DNA of 62,982 bases, the filler included, from Dugesia japonica (lineage: Eukaryota): the NCBI GenBank assembly GCA_001938525.1. It is 6 parts of 6 records of this genome, joined end to end, with 100 filler letters (N's around TTAATTAATTAA, not from the genome) between each part and the next. Parts side by side here need not be neighbours in the genome. Positions count along the whole stretch, not along the records: positions 54,040 to 62,982 come from MQRL01607103.1; 5 more parts are not named here. The stretch is one strand, 5' to 3'. The notes beneath the pieces are model-generated. The model ran no database searches. It saw nothing but the letters and a program-made list of their open reading frames with translations, and was not told the DNA's origin. Position numbers and translations under genes: made by a program. This document shows positions 5,620-62,982 of this stretch, one piece after another. Every line of letters begins with the position of its first letter. Positions within the stretch are counted from its first letter, which is position 1.

Positions 5620-8600
5620 AAGGAAAAATAGGGTGCTGGGATGGTCACACGAGACGGACACATACGGTGGTTTTGTCAAGAAAAAGAAAAAATTAAGTAT
5701 ATACGCGATGTTTCTTTAGACGATGATGATAAAAACGATCAGCAACCTACTGCATCCATCTCCTCAGTAAGGTTGCAATAAGAGAAAAAATACTCCAAGA
5801 AGAAAAATTGATGTTAGATGATAAGATGTTTCAGAAGAGAGATGGAAGAGAATGGAGTTTTATGCGTTGCAATGAATATGACATTGAGATGTTGTGGGAT
5901 TCAGGAGAAGCAATATCAGTCATGAGCGCGGATGTGTGGAGAAAAGTTGGATCTATCGTCTTCACACATTGTTCTAGCAGGAGTGTTTTCTAAAAAAAGG
6001 AGAAAAATGTATCGAGAAAACTAAACTGAAATTACAATGGAATGGGAAACTTAGAGAAAAAGAAGTAATAATTGTTAGAAATATTTATCCAAAATTTATC
6101 GGAGGTATTGATATAATGAAGCTCTTTGGAATGAAAATCACTGAAGTTAATTTTATTAACTCAAACGATGGAAATCTATTTACCAATAATACAGAAAAAG
6201 TGAAAAATGACTTTAATAGTTCAAATAATTTCAGTCAAGAAGTAAGAAAAATGATAGAAACTTACACAATTATATTTATGTCATCAAACTTTGATCTTGG
6301 ATATACGAAACTGATGCAACATAACATTGAAACGACAGGACCTCCAATAATGATAAAACTGAGAAGACAGCCAATGTACTTGGAAAATAAAATAGATGAA
6401 TTGTTAGAAAATCTTAGAAAATCATATATTATAAGAAGTTACAGATGTCCATGGAATTCCCCATTGGTAATTGTACCAAAGAAAGATGGGACGATAAAAA
6501 TGTGTCTTGATTTTAGAAAATTGAATTCAATTACAGAAAAGTATTCGTTTCCAGTTCCAGATATTCAACTATTATTAGATACGCTTGAAGGATCAGTTTT
6601 ATTTTCTTCTTAAGATTTGGGCCAAGTATATTATCAAATTAAACTAAGCAAAGAATCAAAACTAAAGACGCCTTTAGTACAAAGATGTGTCAAGTTTGTT
6701 TTACTCGAATGCCCTTAGGATTATGTACTGCACTAGCAACATTTTAAAGCTTAATGCATTTAATATTTGAAGGAATGTTGTACAAAGGAGTATTAGTATA
6801 TCTAGATGATATTTTAACATATGGTAAAACTAAAGAAGAGCACGACAAACGAGTTGGTAAGGTTTGTCAGCTACTAAAAATGCGGGTATAAAAATTAATC
6901 CAAGTAAATGTGTGTTCAATTCCAAGAACCTGAAATTTTTAGGACATACAATTAGCACTAAAGATGTAGAGACAAATGATGAAACCATCAACAAAATTCG
7001 AGAAGCCGTAACGCCAAAATGCGCTACGCAAATACGAGCGTTCTTAGGATTAACAAATTATTACAGAAATTTTATAAAAGATTATGCTTTACTTGTAGCA
7101 CCATTGTATGCAGCGACGACAGGACAAGAAAAGAACATTGAATGGACAAAAGAATGTGAGGATAATTTTCAATCTTTGAATATAAAATTTTGTAGTGCTT
7201 TAATTTTGACTTTCCCAAATAATATGGGCGAAATAATATTGGATACTGATGCTAGTTTTTGAGCAATTTAAGGGGTTTTGAGTCAAATAACATATAATGG
7301 TTTGAAACAGGTCATAGCATATGGTTCTTGAACTTTAAACAATCACGAAAAAGGATATCGTGTTACTCGCAAGGAATTGTTTGCTCTGGATGAGTTTATG
7401 ATGTATTTTAAACACTATTTGTATGGCAAGAAATTTAGAGGAAGAACGGATCATAAAGATTGACTTTTATGACAAAGACTAGTAAACTCACCAGTTCTCA
7501 GTTTCAAACATGGATAACAAATCTAGCAGAATTTAATTTTGAACTAGAATTTTGAAAAGGAGCAGCTCGTGGAAATGCTGATGGACTTTCAAGGATATGA
7601 GAGAGCCTTTGTTCACAATGCCAGACTATACATCAAGATGCCAAAGGGGAATGATCTCGAGTTAAAAGAATCAACACTTTAGACAAAACAATTTTTGATA
7701 GCAGCCATATTAAAGAAGTACAGAGAAATGATCCAATAACGAGAGAAATCATTGAATATATTGAAAGTGAAATGATAAATAATAAGCTCAGCACAATGGT
7801 GACCAAAAGTAAATATTTTTCCAAACTGAAAAAGTTTGAATTGGATAAGGAGATACTGATTATCAATAAAGGAAACAAGAAAAGAATTATACTGGCAGGT
7901 ATATCGATACCTAATCTTATAGATTTTATACACGAGGAATTACGTCATGTGGAAGACCAAAAACTGACGGAGTATTTGAGTGTAAGTTATTTTTGGTCAA
8001 ATATGCAAAGAAATGTAGAACATCAACTAAAAAAATGTATGATATGTAACATGCGTAAAACATACACTGGGCGAACAAAAGAATTTCTTATTCCAAGAAC
8101 AGAATTTGGACCACTAGAACAGATTATTATGAATATCGCTTACTTTCCAGAAGTGAAAACCAAAAAGAAATATGTTCTCGTCATGGTTGACAGGTATAGT
8201 AAGTTAGTATCATTCATAGTAAACAGGATGAAACTTCGGTAGTTGAGGCAATAAAGGAAAACTGGTAAGCAAAAATGTTTAAAGGAAAGTTAATGTGGTC
8301 ACTTGCTGAGAAGTTTGAAATTCAACAAGAATTTTCGTCCACATATAAACATCAATCAAATGGTTTAGCAGAAAGAAATATTAGAACACTTTGCGATATA
8401 ATGGTAACTACGATATAAAACGGCTGCACTGAATCTGGTTGGGACAAATTACTTCCATGAATTCAGTTTGTAATAAATACAACACAACAAAAATCAACGG
8501 GTCTATCTCCTTTTAAAATTATCTTTGGAAGAAGGATAGTCTTACACGGATTACCAAAAGAAGGAAATCCGAAACTTGAAAAAATGAAAGAACTGGCAGA

Positions 8601-8800
8601 TGAATATTTACAGAAAGGAGCTCAAAACTTAAGCAAATACGAATGTGAAAAACGAACGTCCAACAGGTATGAGGGTCCTTACAAATTTAGTAAATTTATA
8701 AGCCCACATCAGGTACTTATAGATTATGCAGGACAGCTTAAACCGAGAAGACTTGAATGGAAAAAGTTCAACGAAACATCGGAGGTCTGTTTCGTCTAGG
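5620..8800 (+). mobile_element. Degenerate Ty3/Gypsy LTR retrotransposon internal region (gag zinc knuckle, PR, RT, RNase H, INT) with many stops and frameshifts
   Basis: Decayed knuckle CW..RDGHIRWFC (~5635); protease LWDSG; RT PWNSPLVIVPKKDGTIKMCLDFRKLN and YLDD (~6800); RAFLGLTNYYR; RNase H LDTDASF; integrase H..H..CMIC and VMVDRYSK; C-terminal RYEGPY. The order PR-RT-RH-INT is Gypsy. Confidence 0.93.
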
Positions 8801-11942: not shown

Positions 11943-12042
11943 NNNNNNNNNNNNNNNNNNNNNNNNNNNNNNNNNNNNNNNNNNNNTTAATTAATTAANN
12001 NNNNNNNNNNNNNNNNNNNNNNNNNNNNNNNNNNNNNNNNNN
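11943..12042. other. Artificial scaffold-joining spacer (N44-TTAATTAATTAA-N44); same spacer centred at 21620, 30472, 38916 and 53984
   Basis: Identical six-frame-stop 12-mer centred in N runs five times. Confidence 0.95.
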
Positions 12043-24289: not shown

Positions 24290-24973
24290 TTCAAATTTGG
24301 TATTAATCGTCTTAGAATTGTAAGGTAAACATTTTTTATATAGAGTTTGCTATATAAATATGCTTGGTTCTCTAGGAAAAGGTATCAGCGCACTGGAACA
24401 GTTGACCTTTTTTCTTAATTTCTCAGTCAATACTTATTATATTGCACTGAAAATGATGGCATTCAATTCAGACTAAAATTCCAAACATATTTTGTATAGG
24501 GTTTGCTGTAAATATATTTTTAGTTCAAAAGATAGAAAATTCCCAGGAGCCATGTTGCACCGAGGATGAAAAATTATCTTTTCGAGAAATATTTATGATA
24601 AGCAAACAAATTTGGTATTGGTGAACTCAGAATTAAACACTGAACATATTTCTCATATGCTTTGCTATATGAATATTTTTAATTTCCAAGATAAAGGTAT
24701 GAATGCACTAGAACACTTGACTTTGATCTACAAATTTCTCAGTGTAGACTCGTCGTATGGTTATGAATATGATGGCATTCGATTCAAAATAATATTATGA
24801 ACATATTTTGTATGAAGTTTGCTGTAAAACATTTCTTGATTCAAAAGATAGAAAATTCCCGGTTACAATGACCCATCGAAGATGCAAAATTAAACTTTAG
24901 AAATACTAATGATAATCAAACAAATTTGATATGGATCTTCTTAGAATTGAAAGGTAGAAATTGTTATATAAAG
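24290..24973 (+). repeat. ~314-bp degenerate tandem repeat (satellite-like), + arm
   Basis: Unit marker CAAATTTG recurs at about 24292, 24607 and 24921. Confidence 0.7.
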
Positions 24974-24974
24974 A

Positions 24975-25775
24975 ATCTGAAGAATTGACACCAAAAAATA
25001 GACATTTTCAAGTTGGAGACAATGTGCTAATCAAGGCAGAAAACTGATCAAAAGACAAAGAAAGATACACAGGTCCGTACGAGGTGATAAAACAGATTCA
25101 TGAAAGACGATACCTGCTAAGGAGTTCAGAAGGCAAGAATATTGATGAAATGTGGAAAAAATTTTAAAAAAATTTAAAGAGGTGGATTGAGTATTGATTC
25201 ATGAATTTCAAATATCTGAGATTTTTAAATTTTTATATATAATATTAAAATTGGTTTTTTAAAAATACAAATTAATTGAATAAAGTCTACATATTATATT
25301 ATAATAAAATTATGAAATTATAAAAATTATTTGGTAAACGTATGTTAAAAATAATCGTAAAATAAAAGTATTTCAAAATTTTAAATTATAAAATTATAAA
25401 AATTATTTTGTAAATATTAAGTTTAAAAAAGGTATTTTAAAATTAAAGTCGATATTAATATTATGTTAAATTATAAAATTATAAAAATTATTTGGTAAAA
25501 TTAGGTGTAAAAATAATTAAAAATAAATTTATTTTGGTATTTAAAAAGTCAAGATTTTTGAAAAAATCTTAAGATTTCTCAGATTATTTGTTTGAAATTT
25601 GTGAATTGTTATTTCATATTTTTAATTTTAATAAAAGACTTGTAATAATGAATAAACAATTTATGGAGATTTGTGAGACTTAAAATTTCACTAATATGGC
25701 GACCATCGCATCATTAGATTTGCTAAAAGAAGCCATGAGCCTTGGAATTTTAAAATCTGGTAAACCCAATTGATA
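24975..25775 (+). mobile_element. Gypsy fragment: integrase C-terminus, PPT, single LTR (~25188-25696), PBS and gag-like start
   Basis: KNRHFQVGDNVLIK..RYTGPYEVIKQIHERRY; purine tract AAAGAGGTGGA at 25176-25186; AATAAA near 25630 and 25651; TGGCGACC at 25697 overlapping ATG MATIASLDLL. Confidence 0.7.
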
Positions 25776-26329
25776 TAGTAAAGTCTATGTGATACAGTAA
25801 ACAAAAAGTTAGAGTAATCCAGTATATATAGTAAAGTAGTGGACATAGTAAACCAATGAACACCACACATAGATAGTATTTTGTCAAAGTATATGATCAA
25901 ATCAGACAATTCAAGTAAATTATTTAATTTATTACATTAATTTAATTTAATTTTAATCTATTATAATGTTTAGAAAAATATGTACTATTTTGAAAGTTAT
26001 GTTTAATTTAAATTTATGTTTTTATTGCTGTCAATAAATTTATTTTGTAAATTTTATAAATTTTTGAAATTTTAAATTTTATGTGTGTTGCCAATAACGA
26101 TATTTTAATAGTTTAAATTTTTTATCATGTAATTTTATTATTTTAGTTTTTCAATGTTTATAGTTTGTATAAATTTTAACGCTTATTTTTAAAAGTAAAT
26201 CAAAATTAATATCATAAAAATCATTAAAATGTGTCATTTACTGGAAAAAATCTTGAATTTAAAATTTTGAAATTTAATGAAAATTAATTAAAATTAACAC
26301 ATGAAATATAATTATTAGAAGGTAGCATT

Positions 26330-27393
26330 TTTATACAACAAACCCCATAAACGAAATGTTCAGTTTTTTATTTTAACTTTAATGGTCTTAAATATTTTAA
26401 ATATTGTTATTATTTTAATTATAATTTATAATTAATTATATAATTACATATTTTTTTGAGAATCATGCATATTTGTACAATATACCATGTGTGGAATATG
26501 TTCAGTTTTATATTCTGAGTTTAAAAAGACCAAATTTGTTTGACTGTTCTTAGTATTTCCCAGAAAAGATAATTGTCTAATTATCATTTGATAACCATAC
26601 CATATGTTTCCGTCGAGAAATTCGCAGATCAATGTCAAGTGTTCCCGTGCGCTCATACCTTTATCTTGGAAACTAAAATTATTCATATAGCAAAGCATAC
26701 ATGAAAATTTTATAGTTTTGAATTCTGAGTTCAACAATACCAAATTTGTATGATTATCATAAGTATTTCCAGAAATAATAATTTACTATGTACAGTGGTC
26801 ATGGCACCTGACCATTTTCTATCGTTTAAACTAAGTATATATTTAAAACAGACCATTTACGAGATATGTTCAGAATTTTATTCTGAATCAAATGCTGACA
26901 CGTTCATGATCATACGATAAGTTTTGGTTGAGAAATTTAAAAAACAAAATAACTGTTTCCGTGGGCTCATACCTATTCTGAGAGAACCAAGCATATTCAT
27001 ACGGCAAACTTTATATAACAATTTCCACCTTTCAATTCTAAGAAGATCCATATCAAATTTGTTTGATTATCATTAGTATTTCTAAAGTTTAATTTTGAAT
27101 CTTCGATGGGTCATTGTAACCGGAAATTTTCTATCTTTTGAATCAAGAAAGGTTTTACAGCAAACCCCATACAAAATATGTTCATAATTTTATTTTGAAT
27201 CGAATGCCATCATATTCATAACCATACGACGAGTCTACACTGAGAAATTTGTAGATCAAAGTCAAGTGTTCTAGTGCATTCATACCTTTATCTTGGAAAT
27301 TAAAAATATTCATATAGCAAAGCATATGAGAAATATGTTCAGTGTTTAATTCTGAGTTCACCAATACCAAATTTGTTTGCTTATCATAAATAT
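26330..27393 (-). repeat. ~314-bp degenerate tandem repeat, inverted arm; 27010-27393 is a near-identical reverse complement of 24591-24973
   Basis: Direct comparison. ORF-track peptides 24612..24800(+) and 27182..27403(-) are nearly identical. Confidence 0.85.
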
Positions 27394-28610: not shown

Positions 28611-29299
28611 TTTACAATTTTTCGTTTAAATTTCATGGAATAGTTAGTCTCAGAACAATATTTGTTTTATCTATGAAAATATACATTTTAAAAATGAATT
28701 TTCTCTTATAATTCATCATTAACATTATTATTAATATTATTATAATAATATTTATTATTACTATTATTATTGTTAGTTGGATTTTGAAAACTCATCGAAT
28801 CGTCAACATCAGAATTCAAATTCATTACAACGATTTATTAAAATAAAAACTATGACATCATTAATTGTTTTAAACAAACAAATTTAAAAATTCATATTTA
28901 AAAACGGAAAATCTAAATATTTAATTTTATATATTTTTAAATTTCATTATATTTAAATTATATTTTGATTTTTAAAAAAATACACTAAAATAGATATGTT
29001 TTATTCTTTTAAAATATGTTTGATTTTTTAAAAATACATTAAAATAAACATCATTTTTTATTTAATATTATATTTTATTTGAAAATATTTTGATTTTAAA
29101 AAATACAATAAATAGATATATTTTATTCATTAAAAAAAATACCATAAAATGAACATCTTTTATTTATTCAATTTTATATTTTAAAAATCCTTAAATTTTA
29201 GTAATTTCTTGGTAAATTATTTTCTTGATAAAATTTTAAGATAGGTGGGTCATATGGTAAGCTTTTATTATTTTCTTTCCAAACTCCTTTATCGTCATT

Positions 29300-30000
29300 A
29301 TTAGTCAAAGCTACCTTAGATCCAAAGAATTACACATTCCAGAATATAGATTATTACCAAAAACAGAATTAATTTTTTTAGAAAGAATTGCAATAAATAA
29401 ACCTATTCATGTTTCAAATTTAAATAGAATAACTGCTAAATCAAATTTAGACACAAGTGGAACTTATTCAATTAAAATTAGTAGTCTTGCATTTCAACCA
29501 AGATATATTTTTATTTGCATAAAAGATAGTGAAATTTCATATGAAAAAAATAACAATCTATTTATTCAGAAAAGTACAATAATCACAAAAGGTGTTGCAC
29601 CAGCAGCAGATGTACCCAAAGATCATTATTTAAAAAGTATGCAGATACAATTGAATAATTCTTATTACCCAATAAACGAATTAAAATTTAATATTGGAGA
29701 TAATGAAATGATTTATCCTTATATGTAAAATGTTGTCGTAGGGTTTTAACGGAACCTCAAATATCACTTTTAGATTTTGGAAATCTTTATCTAATATTTT
29801 GTTTTGATGTAAGTGCTCATGATGATAAAATAAATATTAATAATGTTGATGTCACACTTCATTTAACAAAATATCCAGATTTCAAAATTACAATTTACTG
29901 GTGTATACTTGAAGAAAAATATGTAGAAATGAAAATAGCTAACAGCAAAATTGTTATGGTTGAGAATGTTAGAGGGATTGATATTTTAATGTTAACTTTA
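29300..30000 (+). pseudogene. C-terminal half of a second, different Polinton/adintovirus major capsid protein (one frameshift/stop)
   Basis: KELHIPEYRLLP..., QPRYIFICIK, SMQIQLNNSYYP, DFGNLYLIFCFDVS..DVTLHL, IYWCILEEK. Largely missed by the ORF track. Confidence 0.72.
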
Positions 30001-30004
30001 ATAA

Positions 30005-30427
30005 ATGAAGAATTTTATATGTGACAATTGTGGTAAAATAATATTAAAAAAGAATAAGTCAAGACATTTAGATTTGTGTATAAACAGCGTAGCCCATAAA
30101 AGGAAAAAATGTGGCGACTTACAAAATTCAAAAATAATTTCAACATTATTAAAACCAATTACTACAGAAAAATATCCGGGTGAAAGACATTTGTTTAAAC
30201 ATAATTACACTGGACCTGAAACTAGATTAGATATTAGATTAGATTCCGAAGGCAAGCTAAATCTAGGTGAAGAACCAATTAATAATGTAGATAGTGCCGC
30301 ATTAAAACATGACATTGCATATAATTCAGAAAATATTAGAGATCGACATATTCCAGATGTAAATTTAATACATGATTTAAATAATATTGAAAATCCAACA
30401 TTAACAGAAAAATTTCAAAGAGCTCTT
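30005..30427 (+). CDS. Zinc-finger plus parvovirus-type phospholipase A2 domain protein (adintovirus PLA2-like); truncated by gap
   Basis: N-terminal CDNCGK...RHLDLC; Ca-loop-like NYTGPE; catalytic helix PINNVDSAALKHDIAY; R..D motif. Confidence 0.85.
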
Positions 30428-30527
30428 NNNNNNNNNNNNNNNNNNNNNNNNNNNNNNNNNNNNNNNNNNNNTTAATTAATTAANNNNNNNNNNNNNNNNN
30501 NNNNNNNNNNNNNNNNNNNNNNNNNNN

Positions 30528-37889: not shown

Positions 37890-38972
37890 CTGCAAAATAA
37901 CAAAGAAATAAGTAAATGTATGTAAGGAAAATTATAAATCTAAAAACAAATATGCAATAAAAATATAGAATAGATTTTGATAAATAAAATCTTGGTAACT
38001 TATTATATTCACATACATAAAATGATAATAATAATAAAATTAATAATTATAATAATAATAATATTATAATAAATAATATTATGATAATAATAATATTAAT
38101 GATAATAATAGTAATATTAATAAAAATAATAATAATAATATTAAACAAATTAATAATAATGATAATAATAATTAATATTATTCTTATCATTATTATCATA
38201 TATTAATAATTATAATTGTCTTTTTTTAAAAAAATTTATTTTTAAATAATAAATCAAATCCATTTAAATATTAATTTATCAAAAATTTTATATTTTAGGA
38301 GAAAAGCAAAACATCTTCATGCTAATTGAGGAAGTGGATACAAAAATTCTAAAATAGATCAAACCAAGTGAAGCACAAATATTGCGGAAAGTAATTTAAT
38401 CAATAAGCGGTAGTCGAGTATAGAAATTGTTTTTTAAATAAATTTCTCCTCAAAGGAAAATTGTCAGTTCTGAATATTTATTATTGAAAAATAAACTGTC
38501 AAAATATTTAAATCGGAATTTCTCATTTTACATAAATGCTAATAATAATAAATGATTTTATTTATAAAGAATACAAAAATCCAATTTAACTTTGATCTTA
38601 TGAAAAAAAATCTCATTAAATAATATTTAGCAATACGATATTAAATAAATATTTTTCATGTTCTGCTTGGTTTATTCAATAATTATTTATTTGGTGAAAT
38701 GCAAGAATTTTATTTTTTTGATAAATAAGAAATTATTTTTTCTAATGCAGTTTCTTGTTACATTGTTTTTACCATGTTTCGACAGAATAACTGTCATCTT
38801 CGGATAGAATGATTTAATTCTTTTTTGAAAATTCTGTATTGAAACAATATTTATTTCTTTTTTTCATTTTTNNNNNNNNNNNNNNNNNNNNNNNNNNNNN
38901 NNNNNNNNNNNNNNNTTAATTAATTAANNNNNNNNNNNNNNNNNNNNNNNNNNNNNNNNNNNNNNNNNNNNC

Positions 38973-40010
38973 AGATGGAATACTGATAGCTGGAACAGAT
39001 GGAATACTGATAGCTGGAACAGATGGAATACTGATAGCTGGAACAAAGGAAATACCGATAGCTGGAACAGATGGAATACGGATAGTTGGAACAAAGGGAA
39101 TACTGATAGCTGGAACAGATGGAATACTGAAAGTTGGAACAAAGGAAATACCGATTGCTGGAACAGATGGAATACTGAAACTTGGAACAGATGGAATACT
39201 GATAGTTGGAACAGATGGAATACTGACAGCTGGAACAGATGGAATACGGATAGCTGGAACAAAGGAAATACTGATAGCTGGAACAGATGGAATACTGATA
39301 GTTGGAACAGGTGGAACACTGATAGTTGGAACAGATGGAATACTGACAGCTGGAATAGATGGAATACCGACAGCTGGAACAGATGGAATACTGATAGCTG
39401 GAACAGATGGAATACGGATAGCTGGAACAAAGGGAATACCGATAGCTGGAACAGATGGAATACTGACAGCTGGAACAGATGGAACACTGATAGCTGGAAC
39501 AGATGGAATACTGATAGCTGGAACAGATGGAATACTGACAGCCGGAACAGATGGAATACTGACAGCTGGAACAGATGGAATACTGACAGCTGGAACAGAT
39601 GGAATACTGACAGCTGGAACANNNNNNNNNNNNNNNNNNNNNNNNNNNNNNNNNNNGATAGTTGGAACAGATGGAATACTGATAGTTGGAACAGATGGAA
39701 TACTGACAGCTGGAACAGATGGAATACTGACAGTTGGAACAGCTGGAATACTGATAGTTGGAACAGGTGGAATACTGACAGCTGGAACAGATGGAATACT
39801 GACAGTTGGAACAGATGGAATACTGACAGTTGGAACAAAGGGAATACTGACAGCTGGAACAGATGGAATACTGACAGTTGGAACAGCTGGAATACTGACA
39901 GCTGGAACAGATGGAATACTGATAGTTGGAACAGATGGAATACTGATAGATGGGGCCAATATCAAACGAAAGATTGGAATCGATGGAATACCCGCAGTTT
40001 CAAAAAATAA
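38973..40010 (+). CDS. C-terminal part of a Trp-rich tandem-repeat protein, about 40 x WNTDSWNR (24-bp units), ending WGQYQTKDWNRWNTRSFKK*
   Basis: Stop-free + frame. Unit variants are mostly synonymous (GAT/GAC, AGC/AGT, ACT/ACC/ACG, AAT/AAC, AGA/AGG) or conservative (D>E, S>T, R>K) in this frame. TAA at 40008-40010 overlaps AATAAA. The 5' end is lost in the gap. Confidence 0.75.
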   Translation, partial: RWNTDSWNRWNTDSWNRWNTDSWNKGNTDSWNRWNTDSWNKGNTDSWNRWNTESWNKGNTDCWNRWNTETWNRWNTDSWNRWNTDSWNRWNTDSWNKGNTDSWNRWNTDSWNRWNTDSWNRWNTDSWNRWNTDSWNRWNTDSWNRWNTDSWNKGNTDSWNRWNTDSWNRWNTDSWNRWNTDSWNRWNTDSRNRWNTDSWNRWNTDSWNRWNTDSWNXXXXXXXXXXXXDSWNRWNTDSWNRWNTDSWNRWNTDSWNSWNTDSWNRWNTDSWNRWNTDSWNRWNTDSWNKGNTDSWNRWNTDSWNSWNTDSWNRWNTDSWNRWNTDRWGQYQTKDWNRWNTRSFKK

Positions 40011-42760
40011 ATTTTAATAGATTCTACTGAAATGGAAAACTTTTACATTAATTCTTTATTTTAATATAATTTTTGCATTGTTATTTTTAATATATTTTCT
40101 TATAACTATAGTAAAAAAAATTATTATTATTAAAAAATTGTGAAAAATTATGGCAACTTTTTGATAAATAACGCCATTTAGAATATAATTTTATTGTAAT
40201 ATATTTCGACATACATCTGTGTAAGGCTTCAGGAACACAATCGTTTTGGAGGTGGTATTACTATAACCTAGCACAATAAGAATAAACTTAATGCGATTAT
40301 TGACATTTTAAATTTTAAAATTTTGTCTAAAATTTTTCTGAGAATGTTGAATGAAGGCATTAATGATTAGATTTTTTAATCGAAACATTATTATACAGAT
40401 AGGTCTTTCGACTAATTTAATAAAAGTTTTTAGATTTAAATTNNNNNNNNNNNNNNNNNNNNNNNNNNNNNNNNNNNNNNNNNNNNNNNNNNNNNNNNNN
40501 NNNNNNNNAAAATGTCATTTCATTTTTTATATTTACTAACTATGTTATTAATGAAATGCATTAATTTAACAATCACAATTATTATGAGAATAATTGTTAG
40601 ACTTAACGATTGATTCTATTTGAGATTTCATTAAAATAAAACCTTCAATCAAAATATTGTTTTTTCTTTTTAAGAAATAAATACTTTCAAATGAAATACT
40701 ATCAAGAACTAAAATAAATAAAATATAAATTAAGAATAGAAAAACAATATTTTCAAAGAAGTTTTGAATTTAATGAATAAATATATAAATTCGTTTTTAA
40801 TAACTAAAAAATTTATTTAAAAATATATTTTAAAAATTTTTATTAAAAAAAATATTTAAAAAAATTTATTTACAAAAATTTTTTTAACAAACAAAGATCA
40901 AAATTTCTGTTATTTTATTTTCAATATTTCGGCAATTATTATTATTATTATTATTATTATTAATATTCTCGAATTATTGTTAAGTAAATTCTTATTACAA
41001 ACCTAATTATATTAAAATTTATTAATATACATACTGAATATGTAATTTTATGTGAATATGCGTATGTGTATGTTTGAATTATATATAGAGCATTGAGTAC
41101 TTGAACAAAACTAAATAAATTAAAATATTAACTAATTCATTAAAGTACTTTCCAATGAATGATAAATATAATATTACATATTGGAAGAAGGGGGTAACAA
41201 AATTTAAAATGGAAGAGACATATATAATTAAGACAAGAAAAAACGTGGTAGGTCAAAATAAAAGTTGTAATATCGACGTAGGAAACATAAAAAAGCAGGT
41301 AATTAACTCTTCCATTCTTAAATCGGGTTATAATCTAAGCCAAAATTCTTATTATTATGTCAAAATTTGTGAAATACAAAAAGTATCTATGTGAATATGT
41401 TTTCATTTCTTACAGTTATTTTATATTATTCAGTATTTAATACACAGTATAAAAATGTTTATAGCTTAGTATGAAATTTATTATAGTATAATAATCGAAT
41501 TTTAACGGGGTCTCTTTATACCCCATTGAGGTCCTCGATCGCATCTTCGATGTTTCTGTATTCGAAGGTTAAATACTCTTGAATAAGTCAAAATCCTGAG
41601 GCCAGAACGCAGCGTATATAAAGAATGAGATTAAAAAATAAATTTTAGAAAAGTAATTTTGGGAAAGAAATAAAGCTTAAAGTTAAGAAAACAAATAAAT
41701 AAATCAAAAGAATTAAACTACAACTCAAGCTGTGACAAAGTTTAAAAGGTCTTTCTGTTTTGCAAACTCTTCTGAGCCACTTAACCACTCTTTGAATATT
41801 AACAGAGCTCAATCAACGCTGTTGAATTGTTATAAGTTGTATGTATAGTTGATTAAAAAAAGTTAATATATTTATGAGATATAATCAATAAAAAAAAACA
41901 TGGAATGAGAATATCAAAAAATGGATATTAGTTTTATAAACCCCTAACTCTACTGCCTTTAATTTTTTATACGAAAAAATTCATTATGAAAAAGTGAATT
42001 ACAACATCTTCAAATAAAAGTTCGTTTAGTTTTAAAATGTTTATCTCTTTTTTATATCAGCATTTCCATACGATTTTTTCAGTTTTAAAAAAATCTCTGA
42101 TTTTCTGATATTTAAATCGAATAAATTAATAAAAATGTATTAACTAAATCGTGTTAATTCGAAATCATATAAAAAGAGAATATGGTGTACAAAAAATTAT
42201 TTAATTAGTATCGACCTTTTAAAATGAACAAAATTTCATGAAAATAAAAGCTTCCATTAAAATTTCTTTTGTATTTGAGAGTATTTCGAGTTTTTTGAAC
42301 AAAATTTGTTCTTTATAATTAGATTTTAAAACTTTATTGGTTATTTTTGTCTATCATTATAACTAAATTCAGAAGAGTTCTATAATATTAACCGTCTTGA
42401 TTTAGGTTGTCGACAATATAATTGTTGAATGTAAAATAATTATGAATTTAAATGAATAAATTGTTATTACAAGAAATAAGTAAATTTTTCTCAAAATCTT
42501 TTCTTTTTTGATGAAATTTGTAAAATCTTGATGTTTTAAAAGTCAATAATCATCAATTTATAAAAATAATCAAATTAGTAAAATTCTATTTCTAATTTAC
42601 TTCCAATTGTATAATAATAGATTATCTGGATTAATTTTATATTAACAAACTTAGAAAAATTTCACAAATAGATGATAAAATTGGTTATACTGATAAAATA
42701 CAGATTTTTGAAGATAATAATTTATTCAGAAAAATCATGAACCATCAATAAGTTAAGTAA

Positions 42761-44025
<1,265 letters not shown>

Positions 44026-55040: not shown

Positions 55041-55265
55041 AATTCTCTATTCACAATTTTATTTAGAGAAACATTATGAGATTTTAGAGGATTTATCATA
55101 GGAGTCGTTGAGGATCCTTTGCATCCAATAATTTTGCCACATTTATTACACACCACTGACTTCAAATTATGGACATCGCTAAAACTTTATACAAAATTAT
55201 TAAAATTATTGAAATTATTGAAATTATTAAAATTATTAAAGTTTTAAACAAAATTATTAAAATTA

Positions 55266-56330
55266 TTGAAATTATTATTTGAAGAAAATTTGAAGAAAAG
55301 ATTAAATTTACGATTGTGTAATTCCATGAAAAAATTATTAACAGATCCATTAAAAGCCGGATTCAGAAAATTGATAAAACTTGCAGATGTTCTAATAACT
55401 ATATTACTGAATAAAGAATCAGTTTGTTTAGATCAACCAAACTACATCGGACAGACTGTACTGGACCTTTCAAAGTTGCGTATGTAACAACTGCAATACA
55501 TTGAGTTAGAAAAATACAGGAAAGAAGAATATTGTCAAAAAAATATTGTAGCCGGCGATACGGAGAATTTTTTCTTGGAAATTATGGATATAAATTTGGA
55601 AAAACTAACCGGTTTAATGGTAAAGGATCAGCTAATAGACACTTCAAATTATAATCTAAATCATTGCATTAACAGCAATCAATTAAATTCTGTTATTGGT
55701 AAATTTAAAAATGAAAGTAAAAGGAGTTAGTATAAGGAGTGGATTTTCTTGAGGCCGAAGTGTTACAACCTATTAAATGAAAAAACCACAATGAAAACAA
55801 AAGATTTAAAAATGAAAATAGAGTTATCAATCATCAAACATTTTTTGACTGTAATACAAGTACCGGTCTCTGTGGAGCAATTTAGAATCGCATCAGAAAA
55901 CCACCAATTATANNNNNNNNNNNNNNNNNNNNNNNNNNNNNNNNNNNNNNNNNNNNNNNNNNAAATTATAATGTAAATCATTGCCTTAACAGCAATCATT
56001 TAAATTCTGTTATCGGTAAATTTAAAAATGAAAGTAAAGGGAGTTAGTATAAGGAATGGATTTTCTTGAGACCGAAGTTTTATAACCTTTTAAATGAAAA
56101 AACCACAATGAAAACAAAAGATATAAAAATGAAAATAGAGTTATCAATCATCAAGCATTTTTTGACTGTAATACAAGTACCGGTCTCTGTGGAGCAATTT
56201 AGAATCGCATCAGAAAACCACCAATTATACAGTATAAAAATAAGAAAGTTGCACTCAGTAACAACGACGATAAGAGAGTGTGGACAAGTAAAAATACTAG
56301 TGTTCCATACGGACATTACACAATAAGTAA
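55266..56330 (+). pseudogene. C-terminal remnant of a protein-primed family B DNA polymerase (Polinton pPolB)
   Basis: LDQPNYIGQTVLDLSKLRM, AGDTENFF (YxDTDS-like), DTSNY, VIGKFKNES, LRPKCY. About 55660-55912 is duplicated across the gap. Confidence 0.85.
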
Positions 56331-57699
56331 TACAAAATAAGAACAATCTAATATCCTTTCTCAAACTCAATGAAAACCGATGAAAAAAATCAATACATTT
56401 CGGGAGGTAAATTTTATATTATTAATTTATTATGAAAACGTTTTTCCAAATTTAGATATCAATATAAATATAAAAAAGAAAACTCCAGAAATTTATATGA
56501 AAAAATTGCAACCTGATAAAATAAATTATTTTATTTTGTTAATATTTAAAAATAAATTACTTAGTTAAATGTCAGTGTCAGAATCGTGAGAAGAACAGAT
56601 GAGGAGAACATATCTGATCCAAATTTTATATATTCATTTTATTTTTTAAATATTTTTAACATTCTTATTATTTAGTATGTTGTCAATGATGGAATCGAGA
56701 AAGAAGAAAAATTGTAATATAGAATCAAGATAGAATCAGACTATAAAGAAAAAAGAAATGTAAATACGCCAATATGAGAATAAATACCGGTTCTCTTTAG
56801 AACCAAAAAAAATGATTATCTCCGATGGTAAATGGGTAGTCAAATGTTTGTTATCTACAGATTGTTCGTATTTATATACTCACTGGTAATTTTATTTAAC
56901 TAATTTTTCAAAGTTATAAAATCTAATTTTTTATTCAAATAATTAGACCTATTCAAAAATATCCATAAAACGATTCAATACTAAACTGAATTTTAAATTT
57001 ATCAAACTTTCTTTTAATGCTATGTTTTGGTTCAAATTTTAATAAATTGAGTTCATTATCCTTTAAATTAACATTGGTTCAATTTAAAACATTATTTTTT
57101 AACATGAAACTTATAAATACCAAAACGTTTCCTAAGATTTTAACGATTTTTATTCTGTGATGTAAATTTATTATGAATTAAATTATTAGACATGAAAATA
57201 GCTATCTTAATACACATATAAAAGTGAAATCATTGCTTACTTCATACAGAGCTAATCTCACTATTGTCAAATTCTTGAAAATATAATTTCATCTTCTTTT
57301 TTCCAGCTCTATTGTGCTTCTTAGCATCTTTCTATGAATAAATCTCCGATCCTCATTTAACAAACATTCCGTAAGTTTCAATTTCAATAAAAATCGTGAA
57401 ATAATATGATCTTCACTGCATGTCTGTAAGAAGGATATCAATTTATTCTCGGCACAAGCTACAAATTAGTTTTGAATATCTTCTAAATATCTTCAATGCA
57501 GGTTGAAAATTGTTAGAAAAATATAAATAAAACGATGACAAATGTTTAATGAAAAGTAAAATTAAATATAAATTTACTAGAAGTCTTGGAAATTTGTCTG
57601 AAGTTTACTCTAAGTCATTAGAAAGGATCATACATTACTAGAAGTCATTAGAAATCTTTATAAGTTAAATAGCATTCATCAATAACTTTCAAAATTACA

Positions 57700-58260: not shown

Positions 58261-60889
58261 GAATAAAAAGTATTTTACTAAATAGATTTTTATTAATACA
58301 AATTATTAACAAATAAGTGTTAAACAAGTGTCTAAACAAGTGTTACCAACCTAGAATCTGTAAAAACACTATATCCACAGTAGATAGCCCATTGAACCAA
58401 CACACCTCCCCTCCTTATGTAAAAATGATTAGATAACTTTTTCAATGTAAATAGGCGGAGCAACACATTTGTGTGTATTACGTAACAGTTGCTCGTATTT
58501 TTGAATAGTTTAACGAATTATCGAGTTTTTAGGAAAAGCGTTAATTTGTGTGTATTACATAACATCTGATCATACTTTTTACTAATTTATCGATTTATTT
58601 AAATTTTTAAATTTTTTGGACGATTTGATAAGGAAATATTTCGAGAAGGTTTATTTTTCGGTGCTTTTGAGCAATAATTTCCACTGGTTTGTCTGTTTCA
58701 GTTGAATTTTTTACGCAAATTCGTGAGAAATAAACGAATTTGTTTAAATAATTCAAATAATTAAACTTTATATAAGAATCCGGACAAAAAACCTAAATTT
58801 GAAAAGTTTTTGACAAATTTTTGTGTCGATAATTTTACACAAATCGATTTAGAATNNNNNNNNNNNNNNNNNNNNNNNNNNNNNNNNNNNNNNNNNNNNN
58901 NNNNNATGTCGTGATCATTTCTAGCCTAAAATATTTTTTTCGAAAAATATTCTTTTCTCGAATTTAATTATACACTAATCTATTTGATAGAAAATCTTTC
59001 GCTGATCATGACTGACATGATTAAAAATCACTAAATCATGTTGGGTACTGAAGAAATTAAGAAAAACAGGTGATTGTTTGAGAATTTTTGAAAATATTTC
59101 TTCTCTAATCGTAACGAAACAAGCATTATTCTATAGAGAATTTGTATAATTAATCGATTTTAATTTTTAAATAATATAAAAAAAAATTAAAATGTTAAAC
59201 TTATTGGCAATGAATATTGATAAAATTAAATATAATATGATGGAGTATAGAGTAGAGAATAGCAAAAAAAAATTTGATAGAGATATTAATTATTCAGTTT
59301 CCATGGAACCAATTAAAGTTGACTTGGCTGATATTTTACGTGAAAAACTAACGATTCATGATAAAACCATTGATCAAAGCAATAAAATGTAGTATTTTAA
59401 TAATTTTTATTTCAATAGTTAAATGCATTTATTTTTAGTGTATCAATACAAACCAGTACAATATAACCAAGCTTAAATGTGTTCTGATGCGCTACTACCC
59501 TTGTAGTGAGAACCAAACATGTTTTATGAAAAGTAAAACTATATTCCTATAGACGTTTTAATTTTGAGTTGAATGTTCTAGATATTTTTTAAAACTTATT
59601 ATTATTTTAGTTATTATTATAATTTATAATTAAGTATATAACTATAAATTATTTTGAGAACCACACAGATTTGTACAACAAATTCTTTATGAAATACGTT
59701 CAGTTTTTTATTCTAAGACAAATGGTATCAAATATGAGACAATCAATAATGACTGAGAAATCCTTGAAATAAATTTCAAGTGTTCTCATGCACTGCTGCC
59801 ATTGCAAAGAGAACCCAACATATTTTGAAAAACTTAAAATGTTATTCTTATACAGAAACCAACATATCAATTTTGATCGAAGCTTTTATTTTAATGAAGT
59901 AAAAGTTGCGTTGGAATTCCTGACTATTTTAAAGATCTGAGTCTATTCAATTATTTATGATGCTGACTGATTGTTTTTTAACAATTGTAACATTGTTCAA
60001 TTTTTGACCGATGTAAACGGTCAAAAGCATTGCTACCAGAGATGCACATACCGTAATCAAGCATAGCCTAGTTAAAACTTCGCAAGCTGATCGATAAGTT
60101 CAACTATGAACGGACTCGAATCGAATGCTTAAGAACTTGATAAATTCGCTCCGTCGGACCGTAATTGTCAGAAGAGGTAGTGTAATGGTATGGAAGAAAA
60201 ACAAATTCTGTTACTGAAACAATGTCTGAAAATAATTAATAATTATTAATAATTTATTGATTTAAACTATTAGCTTAAAAAAAATCAATTAAATAAATGT
60301 CTTTTTTATATTTTTAATCTCATAAAATCTTAAAAGTAAATTTAAAACTCATTTTTGCAACACAACAGCTGTATGCGTTCAACACACAAACAGTTTACCC
60401 CATATTTACCTTTGGCAACCTATATACCGATTTTGTAAATCAAGTCAAATCCATCATCGAAACCCAAAAATCTTAAAAAAACACACAGTATCACTTTTGT
60501 TGTTTTTTAATATATACTTACAAACACACACGCACCGTCACCCTAAAAATATACAAACACAACACCGTTACGTACCTCTACTCACCCTCTTTTATCCAAC
60601 TTGCAACACAACACCCTTTTTAACAAAAATGCGACAACTCCAAACTGTAACCCTTAGAAACCTTTTAGACTACAGTAACTTATGAATTTGTAAATATTTT
60701 CTAAATACCTTTTCAAATCGATCATCTCAACCATAACAAAAGAAAAAAGATAAAGAAATGAAAAAAGAGAAAAAAGAAAAGTAAAGCAAAACAATAAATA
60801 AAACAAAATTGTAAATATTCCGAAAAAACAAAAACAATTTAAAATTTTCGCCAAAAATCTTTACGTCTTAATTAAAACAGAAACACGGT

Positions 60890-61370
60890 TAATGTGAGTG
60901 CATGCTTGCTTCTATTCGATTGGTCAACCATCTATTTCGATTTTTGTTTCCAACAATTTCGAAAAAATAATTTTCTACACCCCCTTTTTAAATAATCAAA
61001 CTGATAAAAAAATAAGTAATCAATCACTTCGAAAATCAATAATTTGAACTTGCACTTGTCCTTGAACTGCCATTGCACATGTTCTTGAAAATCATTTTGC
61101 ACTTCCTTGCATTAAAGCTTACACTAAAAACAAGCAATAATCAATCAGATCAGAAATCAATAATCAAAAATCAATTAGATTAAAAATCACTTAATGCGCG
61201 ATAAACCATACGGTTGTATACCGAAGTCGTAATATATTTTCGCTAAGGGGAGAAGAAAGGTGAAATTTTTTTAACCAATCAAATTTCTAGATCAGTCGAA
61301 ATGAACGATTCTGATTGGTCAAAAATTTACCAATCAAATAGGTGCGGTCATGCACTCACATCTACCTACT
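60890..61370. mobile_element. Small non-autonomous element with TIRs of the AGTAGGTAGAT family and CCAAT boxes
   Basis: ATGTGAGTGCATG..CTATTCGATTGGT (60893-60925) is the inverse of ACCAATCAAATAG..CATGCACTCACATCTACCTACT (61329-61370). Confidence 0.6.
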
Positions 61371-61699
61371 TAAATTCTTGAAAATTATGATCAATGTTAT
61401 TGGAAATATAGAAACTTATTATGAATTTCCATTAACTATGGAAATAAGTAAGGATATATATTTTATTTAATGGTAGCAATGTTTTGTAATGATTTTTTTA
61501 CACGGTAATGAATATGTTTTGTAATGATTTTATTTTAAATTAACAATGTTTTTAATTCAAACTTTCATTTTCAATTAATAATTTGATTTTCAGACAATAA
61601 TTGTTTAAGTTAATGATTTGAAGTTAATGATGTGAATTATTGGAAATATAAAAACTTATAACTTATTAACTATGAAAATAAGTAATGATTTATTTTTAT

Positions 61700-62135
61700 T
61701 TAATGGTAATGGAAATACTTCATCACTCCAATTATTATTAAAATTCTTGATGAATAGTGAAGNTGATATCTTTGAGATTCTTACATGATCAGCAATTTTA
61801 TATTTAGATTTCATAATTGTTTTTGGTTCTGGTTTCAATAGCCATAATTACAATAATTGTCAGATGATACATCAAAGAGTCGTGCACAATTTAATCTTTT
61901 ATGACTTGTATGATTATAACCGTCAATTATTTTGAGTAATACATGAATCCATTTCTTATTACCAGTATGTACAAAAAGCTTTTTCAGTGCATCTCTCAAT
62001 ATTCGATTAAATCTTTCAACATATGTTGCTTTGTACAAATTAATGGTTAATGTTTAGAAAATCAATAAAATTTTGATTTTCTAATTATAAAAATCATTTC
62101 TTAGATAAGTTTGTAAACTATCTCGATGACCATCT
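61700..62135 (-). pseudogene. Polinton/Maverick retroviral-like (DDE) integrase remnant
   Basis: LQTYLRNDFYN (LQTDxGxEFYN-like), KATYVERFNRIL, KWIHVL..IIDGYNHTSH, KYKIADHVRISK..F.K....NWSDEVF. Confidence 0.88.
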
Positions 62136-62136
62136 T

Positions 62137-62460
62137 TTAACCACGGGGTGCAAGAAACCAATGAGATCAAAGGTTTTAAAGTATAATATCCAGAATATTC
62201 AATCACAATCACTTGCAGTTGTTTATAATTTAAGAACTATGATTGATTTATATGAATTATCCAAAGTAATCAAATGCGCATATGGACCGAAAATATTAAC
62301 AGAATTAAGAATTTCGAAATATGATCCAATATGTGTTAATTTATTTTCAAATGAAAATATTTTACTAGTTGGAATTAAAACATTTTATTATCAGTCTATA
62401 ACTAATGAAATATTAAAAGAATTAATTAATTTAAATAATAATTTAAATACCATAGTTTAA
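62137..62460 (+). CDS. TATA-binding-protein (TBP)-fold-like repeat, probably a degenerate, element-borne fragment
   Basis: QSLAVVYNLRTMIDLYEL..AYGPKILTELRI..PICVNLFSNENILLVGIK aligns by eye to the TBP repeat QNMVGSCDVKFPIRLEGL..YEPELFPGL..PRIVLLIFVSGKVVLTGAK. The in-frame upstream TTGCKK resembles the end of a first repeat. Confidence 0.6.
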   Translation, partial: LTTGCKKPMRSKVLKYNIQNIQSQSLAVVYNLRTMIDLYELSKVIKCAYGPKILTELRISKYDPICVNLFSNENILLVGIKTFYYQSITNEILKELINLNNNLNTIV

Positions 62461-62498
62461 ATTAAGTGATTGTAATCATTGAAAAAATTTTCAAAAAT

Positions 62499-62968
62499 GG
62501 ATGATATAATCTTGCCAGGAAAACAGAAGGAATTTTTTCAAAGAAACAGAATTACATAATGAAGATTTGGTTATTGAGGATAATGATGAATTCATGATAT
62601 CCTTAATGAAATTGCATGGAAGAACAATTATTTAAAAAATTATTTCAGAGACTAAAGATTGTTTATCGTTGAATTATGAAGATTATTTCAACAAATATAA
62701 AGTTGATGTAGCCGATAATTTAGCAAATTTATTCAATCCTGATCCATTTATTAATGCAATGGAGGAAATATTAAACAATGAAATTATACTTTATCAACAT
62801 AAATTAGAAGAAACATTACAAAGTAGTCTACGGGCCCTTATTCAAATTCAATTCTTAGATAGTTTTGTGGTTTTCAGAAGATTGGAATATATAGATCAAC
62901 TAAATTTTCATCCAGAAACGTTGGAAAATATGAAACTAAAACGAATTTATAAAATTTCAGTAAAATAA
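62499..62968 (+). pseudogene. Unknown ORF remnant downstream of the TBP-like ORF
   Basis: ATG at ~62498 (MDDIILPGKQ...), interrupted, then a 99-codon open stretch 62669-62968 with no recognised motif. Confidence 0.3.
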
Positions 62969-62982
62969 GATAAGGCTTCGAT

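Follow-up and report, generated by a model that had tools for sequence, protein, structure and literature searches.

A decayed TBP-fold gene fragment in Dugesia japonica points to a compact Polinton-borne TBP family and a candidate late promoter

The stretch of Dugesia japonica DNA analysed here (62,982 nucleotides, hereafter the window) carries at positions 62146–62460 a fragment of a compact (~150 aa) Polinton TBP-fold gene. To judge from its sequence, this copy is a dead, decayed fragment rather than a working gene, and the value of the locus is as a pointer to a TBP family whose intact members lie among Polinton genes. In intact elements, with a probability that we put at about 0.6, the compact TBP would be made early and act on specific promoters, binding their ATAAAC box and directing host Pol II to genes for packaging and capsid, much as in known viral systems, the window holding a dead copy.

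A truncated TBP-fold gene and its surroundings

Positions 62137–62460 of the plus strand form an intron-free frame open for 107 aa, in agreement with the intronless TBP-repeat stretch of ~100 aa that an earlier note on this DNA had described. The same note read it as one TBP repeat plus the tail of a preceding one, and this description is borne out by homology to an intact relative, P0002 (153 aa), which starts at about 62146, corresponding to residue 50 of 153, and takes in the tail of repeat 1, the whole of repeat 2, the final helix and the stop. The window peptide is 78% identical to residues 50–153 of P0002 over 104 aa, and P0002 matches PF00352 in two stretches (E 5.8e-12). A Pfam comparison of the window peptide itself, which the earlier note had proposed for PF00352, gave no match at E≤1, and comparison with PDB sequences gave no TBP match. 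Scored against a TBP profile of 60 rows (cellular, archaeal and giant-virus-type TBP, with Polinton rows excluded), the peptide reached 23.8 bits, the top value being 8.8 bits among 1000 shuffles of the same peptide, 956 of which gave a score. The TBP assignment therefore stands on the identity to P0002, the PF00352 match of P0002 and a profile score above all shuffles. In the ESM Atlas, 27 of 30 matches to the window peptide fell in TBP clusters at 0.93, with a recognition value of 1854, below the 2300 mark and thus a lead only; none of 177 candidates proved to be a longer homologue. The features of this region are as follows.

55248–56337, plus strand: C-terminal remnant of pPolB (protein-primed B DNA polymerase); tblastn with the L022 pPolB, E 1e-22; repeat D3
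60892–61370, no strand: small inverted-repeat element ending in ATCTACCTACT, its 36-bp arms 81% alike; lies left of the integrase
61662–62116, minus strand: middle part of a Polinton retroviral-type integrase, remnant; tblastn with the L019 and L022 integrases, E 1e-22
62117–62145, no strand: junction of two truncated genes; the homology of TBP and integrase ends here
62146–62460, plus strand: 3' two-thirds of a compact Polinton TBP-fold gene, 5'-truncated and decayed; P0002 identity, profile and shuffle test, tree, decay pattern
62497–62968, plus strand: frameshifted remnant of an unknown gene that lies 3' of TBP in the element family; six-frame reading and contigs of other copies

Relative to P0002, the window copy departs at 8 of the 25 near-invariant columns and at 15 of the 79 variable ones, and eleven intact relatives differ from P0002 at 1–2 of the 25 near-invariant and 37–57 of 70–79 variable columns. 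The changes affect the stirrup region. In addition, the 5' third of the TBP gene is absent from this copy, and neither the missing part nor an ATPase remnant was found elsewhere in the window. Across four RNA runs, none of the 558 mapped reads was ≥99% alike and 15 were at 95–99%, a pattern to which strain differences could contribute. A look-up of RNA data sets containing the stretch listed none. Reads derived from other TBP copies were few and of mixed strand, with a summed depth of ~20–37 in X10 and <6 in the other runs, leaning one way in X9 and X10 and the opposite way in X14; they may represent DNA carry-over of a high-copy repeat. The idea of a Polinton lineage with its own TBP thus holds at the level of the family but not of a working gene at this locus, where the copy is truncated and altered at near-invariant positions.

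The earlier note had placed a Polinton integrase remnant head-to-head with TBP at ~62136, and one was indeed recovered there. It corresponds to residues 145–301 of the L019 integrase, lacks the 5' part and carries a stop, a frameshift and small deletions; the L019 and L022 integrases match rve and Chromo in Pfam. TBP and integrase, each 5'-truncated, meet within ~30 bases. Other copies continue differently at 62145, because 27 RNA reads from such copies cease matching at this position and run on with different letters. On the other side, contigs of other copies join the TBP end and the downstream gene in the three DNA-type runs (X1, X2 and X3). This downstream gene has no Pfam family and no match among the fetched loci; a sulfotransferase identity was rejected, as its Atlas cluster matches share just 89–106 of 256 features.

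For each of the three DNA-type runs, >3000 contigs were mapped on 60800–62982. In X1, summed depth, which is not equivalent to copy number, was 17,000–90,000 over TBP and 8,600–129,000 over the integrase, compared with 11–36 on the left flank and 25 over 62041–62113; overall, TBP, integrase and downstream gene reached summed depths of thousands to hundreds of thousands. This shows that many diverged copies of both TBP and integrase exist in the host, and the two genes therefore likely belong to one element family.

Among the 30 pieces listed out of 9734, none spans the junction. In relatives, TBP and integrase are co-directional in all five that have both, as are TBP and ATPase in 7/7 compact loci, and the ATPase lies 1.3–1.8 kb before the integrase in 12 of the 16 loci with both. 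The head-to-head join is therefore read as a secondary rearrangement. A single deletion through a divergent integrase–ATPase block and TBP has about an even chance of explaining it, with the lack of any relative in which TBP is divergent from the ATPase (0/7) or the integrase (0/5) counting against this account; an inversion in this copy is somewhat less probable. A join of unrelated pieces by rearrangement had been raised earlier as a caveat: the co-directional relatives uphold the rearrangement, while the copy depths make it probable that the pieces are related, as parts of one element family.

Two further components had been reported on this scaffold. The pPolB was confirmed, as remnants at ~55248–56337 that are partly duplicated around an N gap and lie 5 kb from the integrase remnant; that it shares an element with TBP and integrase is a candidate link only. 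An element with AGTAGGTAGAT-type ends is likewise present. In the window, AGTAGGTAGAT occurs solely as the reverse complement, at 15705, 16369 and 61360. The copy at 61360 closes the 60892–61370 inverted-repeat element, the end of which at 61370 faces away from the integrase, so that it is a candidate end of the TBP element only. The ATCTACCTACT end nearby bounds this small element, whose depth is far below that of the TBP and integrase stretches in all bins but one, and the window stops 520 bases after TBP.

The window is AT-rich DNA of animal type; besides several Polinton remnants, it holds actin and MRPS30 genes and remnants of LTR elements. Decayed Polinton hexon and adenain genes lie at 19356–20852 (minus strand), and another Polinton remnant at 29261–30475 comprises a capsid-like remnant followed by a zinc-finger-like and PLA2-like ORF (Phospholip_A2_4, E 1.5e-7). 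The stretch 15675–16381 contains two ATCTACCTACT ends at a distance of 664 bases, and the interval holds 49-bp repeats that bear CCAAT. The actin gene at 42761–43888 (minus strand) is full-length and intronless (Pfam E 2e-151), and 1315–2286 is a coding stretch of mitochondrial ribosomal protein S30 (PDCD9). Two decayed LTR-retrotransposon copies, Gypsy-like by resemblance and in opposite orientations, lie at 5978–8799 and 11991–15388, with an RVT_1 match at 13620–14231. A 24-bp unit is repeated in tandem over 38889–40017, where several reading frames are open, and a 385-bp inverted repeat pair (98%, arms 2 kb apart) at 24333–27393 probably represents a DNA transposon or foldback element of recent origin.

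Fold, relationships and gene context of the compact TBP family

A phmmer search gave 55 representatives at E≤0.001, and a 36-row alignment was then used for a profile search that retained 301 of 1263 candidates at E≤1e-10 (301 clusters). All 120 family members listed carry PF00352, and the median length among the 120 aligned homologues is 150 aa. The structural checks that the earlier note had suggested for the peptide were run on intact P0002: its AlphaFold model has a pLDDT of 95, a Foldseek search with it gave 44 matches at E≤0.001, every listed one a TBP, and structural alignment with TBP gave Z 13.7 and rmsd 2.5 Å over 147 residues, the next non-TBP fold scoring Z 7.3. On this model, P0002 is predicted to adopt the two-repeat TBP saddle fold.

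The roles of the intercalating Phe residues, the TFIIB-binding stirrup and the saddle residues are assumed here to be those in known TBP structures, and repeat 1 was matched to its cellular counterpart by alignment and visual inspection. Of the four intercalating Phe positions, three show no variation in 120/120 homologues, and the first is replaced family-wide. Repeat 2 keeps both of its Phe positions together with the acidic stirrup, the glutamates of which are kept in 116/120 and 120/120 intact homologues and altered in the window copy. Repeat 1 is shortened, with one Phe position kept and proline at the other. At several positions of the saddle, the hydrophobic residues of cellular TBP give way to invariant polar ones in the compact family, and the predicted DNA-facing strand residues equal the stirrup in invariance. 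These clade-wide polar changes suggest that DNA reading may be altered.

The phylogeny called for in the earlier note was built with eukaryotic, archaeal and giant-virus-type TBP rows and without TRF2/TLF/TRF3 rows, and it recovered a Polinton clade of its own, apart from cellular TBPs. The window copy pairs with P0002 inside this 23-row clade (support 100/99), the compact TBP group forms one side of a branch with support 97, and the giant-virus-type rows sampled fall apart from the compact family. The split between Polinton and cellular TBPs is weak (76/94) and long branches meet there; for these reasons, and with TRF2/TLF rows absent, no donor or single origin is claimed.

From a metagenome scan, 80 of 374 loci were kept, 24 of which (L005–L028) belong to the compact TBP family. 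A Polinton hallmark gene is present in 10/24 family loci, including all five longer than 4 kb; the remaining family loci, of 1–3.4 kb, carry TBP alone or with unnamed genes common to the longer loci. Pfam identified pPolB, an rve+Chromo integrase, an A32-type ATPase (Pox_A32), adenain (Peptidase_C5) and PLA2 in the family loci, whereas the labels penton, GasderminX, cupiennin, ‘exonuclease-like’ and ‘SSB-like’ are presumptive, given by resemblance. The gene order in L022 is pPolB, KilA-N, PLA2-like, TBP, ATPase, integrase and capsid genes. Both pPolB and rve integrase are present in the compact-TBP elements L022 and L085, and the capsid of L085 has the double jelly roll fold. L016 additionally has an LRR gene, and a TcdA/TcdB identity for one locus ORF was rejected (Pfam E 0.022, under the cut-off).

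An independent set of 17 contigs (L085–L101) was chosen by packaging ATPase alone, ignoring TBP. At least five of these 17 partial contigs carry a TBP (two compact, three long). The statement in the earlier note that TBP is not a core Polinton gene accordingly needs qualification, TBP being not rare in this Polinton group. These Polinton-like contigs lay inside bacterial GTDB metagenome-assembled genomes and are likely eukaryotic contaminants of the bins. Six further metagenome loci are Polinton-type with longer TBPs; scans of viral contigs gave no family locus and no Polinton control, and one of them returned four unrelated TBPs. In L097 (4714–5831), TBP and TFIIB genes are adjacent (Pfam E 2e-18 and E 7e-7) between hexon and integrase, and in L033 (1302–2731) a PC4 coactivator gene (Pfam E 4e-21) lies two genes ahead of a full-length TBP, followed by integrase and hexon.

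The search for intact two-repeat copies and their neighbours thus located them beside pPolB, integrase, ATPase and capsid genes, and it supports the proposal that a Polinton/adintovirus lineage carries its own TBP-fold protein.

The ATAAAC motif and the possible role of the compact TBP

The promoter analysis covered 21 of the 24 family loci, after removal of two near-duplicates (L013 and L015) and a fragment (L028). ATAAAC is the most enriched hexamer 15–60 nt before start codons, occurring in 36/89 windows with 3.2 expected, and 28 of 54 sites lie 30–49 nt upstream of the start. For per-gene counts, L085 and L086 were added, and nine ORFs whose start was truncated or wrong were left out. The motif precedes the ATPase in 6/7 cases, the GasderminX-like gene in 5/7, the exonuclease-like gene in 5/7, penton in 3/5, hexon in 2/4, PLA2 in 2/3, the integrase in 1/5, and adenain and the cupiennin-like gene in 0/3 each. 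It was found before 1/19 TBP genes compared with 25/42 virion/packaging-type genes, a class in which the exonuclease-like gene was counted as ‘late’ after the motif had been seen there. Out of sample, ATAAAC occurred in 6/18 windows of L085 and L086 compared with 5/162 in 20 other Polinton loci, genes within a locus not being independent.

A different box accompanies a different TBP. L073 (215–11088), which has a divergent TBP of another kind, lacks the ATAAAC motif and carries ATGCAA, mostly as TATGCAA, 29–46 nt before 6/14 genes with 0.4 expected in this one locus, among them the ATPase and a penton-like gene. The TBP-carrying loci L033, L046/L048, L088/L090 and L097 showed no strong motif of their own. 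A TAAGAA candidate in L033/L092/L093 (6/28, 0.8 expected) fails given the number of hexamers tried, and an initiator-like pattern before TBP genes (14/19 compared with 4/42) was chosen after looking and is not taken as evidence. Because the elements with a compact TBP group together in the ATPase tree, shared descent alone may account for the association of motif and TBP; the 12 contigs recorded as ‘no TBP seen’ are incomplete, and several of them are sister to contigs that do carry TBP.

Under the reading we favour, host TBP would transcribe the viral TBP gene first, from an ordinary promoter. In the resulting protein, the intact repeat 2 would grip the TATA-like 5' half of (T/C)ATAAAC while retaining the TFIIB-binding stirrup, and the remodelled repeat 1 would read the 3' C. 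Host TFIIB would be recruited through the kept stirrup, followed by Pol II, which would then transcribe the packaging and virion genes, some of which form overlapping runs that one promoter could serve. An early viral TBP would in this way turn on late genes, as in herpesviruses, with the motif–TBP link confounded by kinship. Points against this reading include the absence of the motif before adenain and cupiennin-like genes, before two of the four hexons and before four of the five integrases, the lack of a strong motif in the other TBP-carrying loci named above, the single locus behind the TATGCAA case, the likeness of TATAAAC to an ordinary TATA box, and the small number and mixed strand of the family RNA reads. 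Where the earlier note had left it between redirecting and antagonising host transcription, redirection appears the better supported because of the promoter motif.

Antagonism nevertheless has to be weighed. The protein might act as a decoy that binds host TFIIB or TBP regulators via the stirrup and dampens host transcription, with host TBP reading ATAAAC; we regard this as unlikely. TATAAAC is near the TATA-box consensus and may be recognised by host TBP, the stirrup is kept, and the shortening of repeat 1 with replacement of one intercalating Phe position could weaken DNA binding; the kinship confounder leaves further room for it. However, the invariance of the predicted DNA-facing residues matches that of the stirrup, the TBP gene itself avoids the motif, and L073, with a different TBP, has a different non-canonical box. 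A slightly less probable alternative is a general helper without promoter choice, which would top up TBP in replication compartments or bend DNA at element ends while another element factor reads ATAAAC. The pairing of TBP with TFIIB or PC4 in other Polintons suggests general initiation machinery of this sort, and several unnamed conserved genes beside TBP could encode the reader, but the spacing from motif to start codon is TATA-like and the invariant polar saddle changes suggest altered reading.

By far the least probable explanation is an origin of the fragment as a retrocopy of a host TBP or TRF gene, or as an unrelated sequence placed beside the integrase by chance or misassembly. It can draw on the lack of a junction-spanning piece among those listed and on trees built without a TRF2/TLF sequence. 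Against it, the window copy nests among Polinton-borne TBPs, its relatives lie in Polinton gene arrays, and TBP, integrase and downstream gene all stand at high summed depth relative to the flank. A retrocopy or unrelated origin of the TBP gene is already refuted by these observations, and misassembly of the join alone is possible.

Beyond the promoter-specific role of the compact TBP, a broader and more tentative proposal, which we hold slightly less probable than its negation, is that animal Polinton lineages run a private transcription code, in which a lineage-specific TBP of altered specificity (accompanied in some lineages by TFIIB or PC4) and the box that fits it (ATAAAC or TATGCAA) would drive an early-to-late programme on host Pol II by a single 150-aa switch, TBP being a near-core gene missed so far. 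If true, a dedicated TBP with a matching late box would offer a direct test of a Polinton virus cycle and a marker for late genes, bearing on the timing of capsid genes in Polintons and on the existence of a true virus cycle. The 150-aa protein would also represent a minimal TBP provided by nature, its DNA preference probably altered, and would be of use in TBP structure–function work and as part of an orthogonal promoter pair.

Comparison with known systems

The gene set of the TBP-bearing loci matches that given for adintoviruses, Polintons and MELD viruses in the accessible text of Starrett et al. 2021 (PMC8502044), namely pPolB, rve integrase, packaging ATPase, adenain, double jelly-roll capsid, PLA2X and GasderminX-like genes. 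The Fig. 5 legend of that paper bears a ‘TBP’ label on MELD viruses, and this label is the sole direct mention found in the literature covered, which lay outside subscription journals and Repbase; Fig. 5 itself and Table S1 may say more. In their readable parts, the text and the preprint (10.1101/697771) describe no TBP family, structure, spread or promoter beyond the label; the maps of animal adintoviruses (Fig. S2, PMC8502044) likewise lack the label in their readable text.

Cellular TBP (PF00352; human 1cdw/7egb, yeast 1ytb, archaeal 2z8u) shares with the compact family the two-repeat saddle, at the Z and rmsd given above, and a repeat 2 in which the two Phe positions and the acidic stirrup are present. 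It is larger (~180 compared with ~150 aa), shows 21–27% identity, and has four intercalating Phe and a full-length repeat 1, whereas the compact protein, encoded by a mobile element, has the first Phe replaced and a polar saddle. Nucleocytoviricota TBP homologues have the viral TBP fold in common with it (BFVD matches from E 6e-8), and these viruses, unlike the Polinton system, bring their own RNA polymerase.

The closest likeness in manner of working, though only in that, appears to be with herpesviruses, whose TBP-like late factors reportedly include EBV BcRF1, KSHV ORF24 and HCMV UL87; each system would combine a nuclear virus lacking an RNA polymerase, an own TBP-fold protein and a TATA variant before structural genes. 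BcRF1 matches the P0002 fold weakly (E 8e-3) and does not form a homologue group with it. The beta- and gammaherpesviruses combine a TBP-like factor with TATT late promoters (PMC4893493). Their factor is a large multi-domain protein within a six-member complex (five partners) that acts on a TATT box, whereas the compact TBP is a stand-alone protein of 150 aa with an ATAAAC box. By this comparison, a viral TBP for late genes is of a kind already known, and what would be new here is a Polinton TBP family with a testable mechanism.
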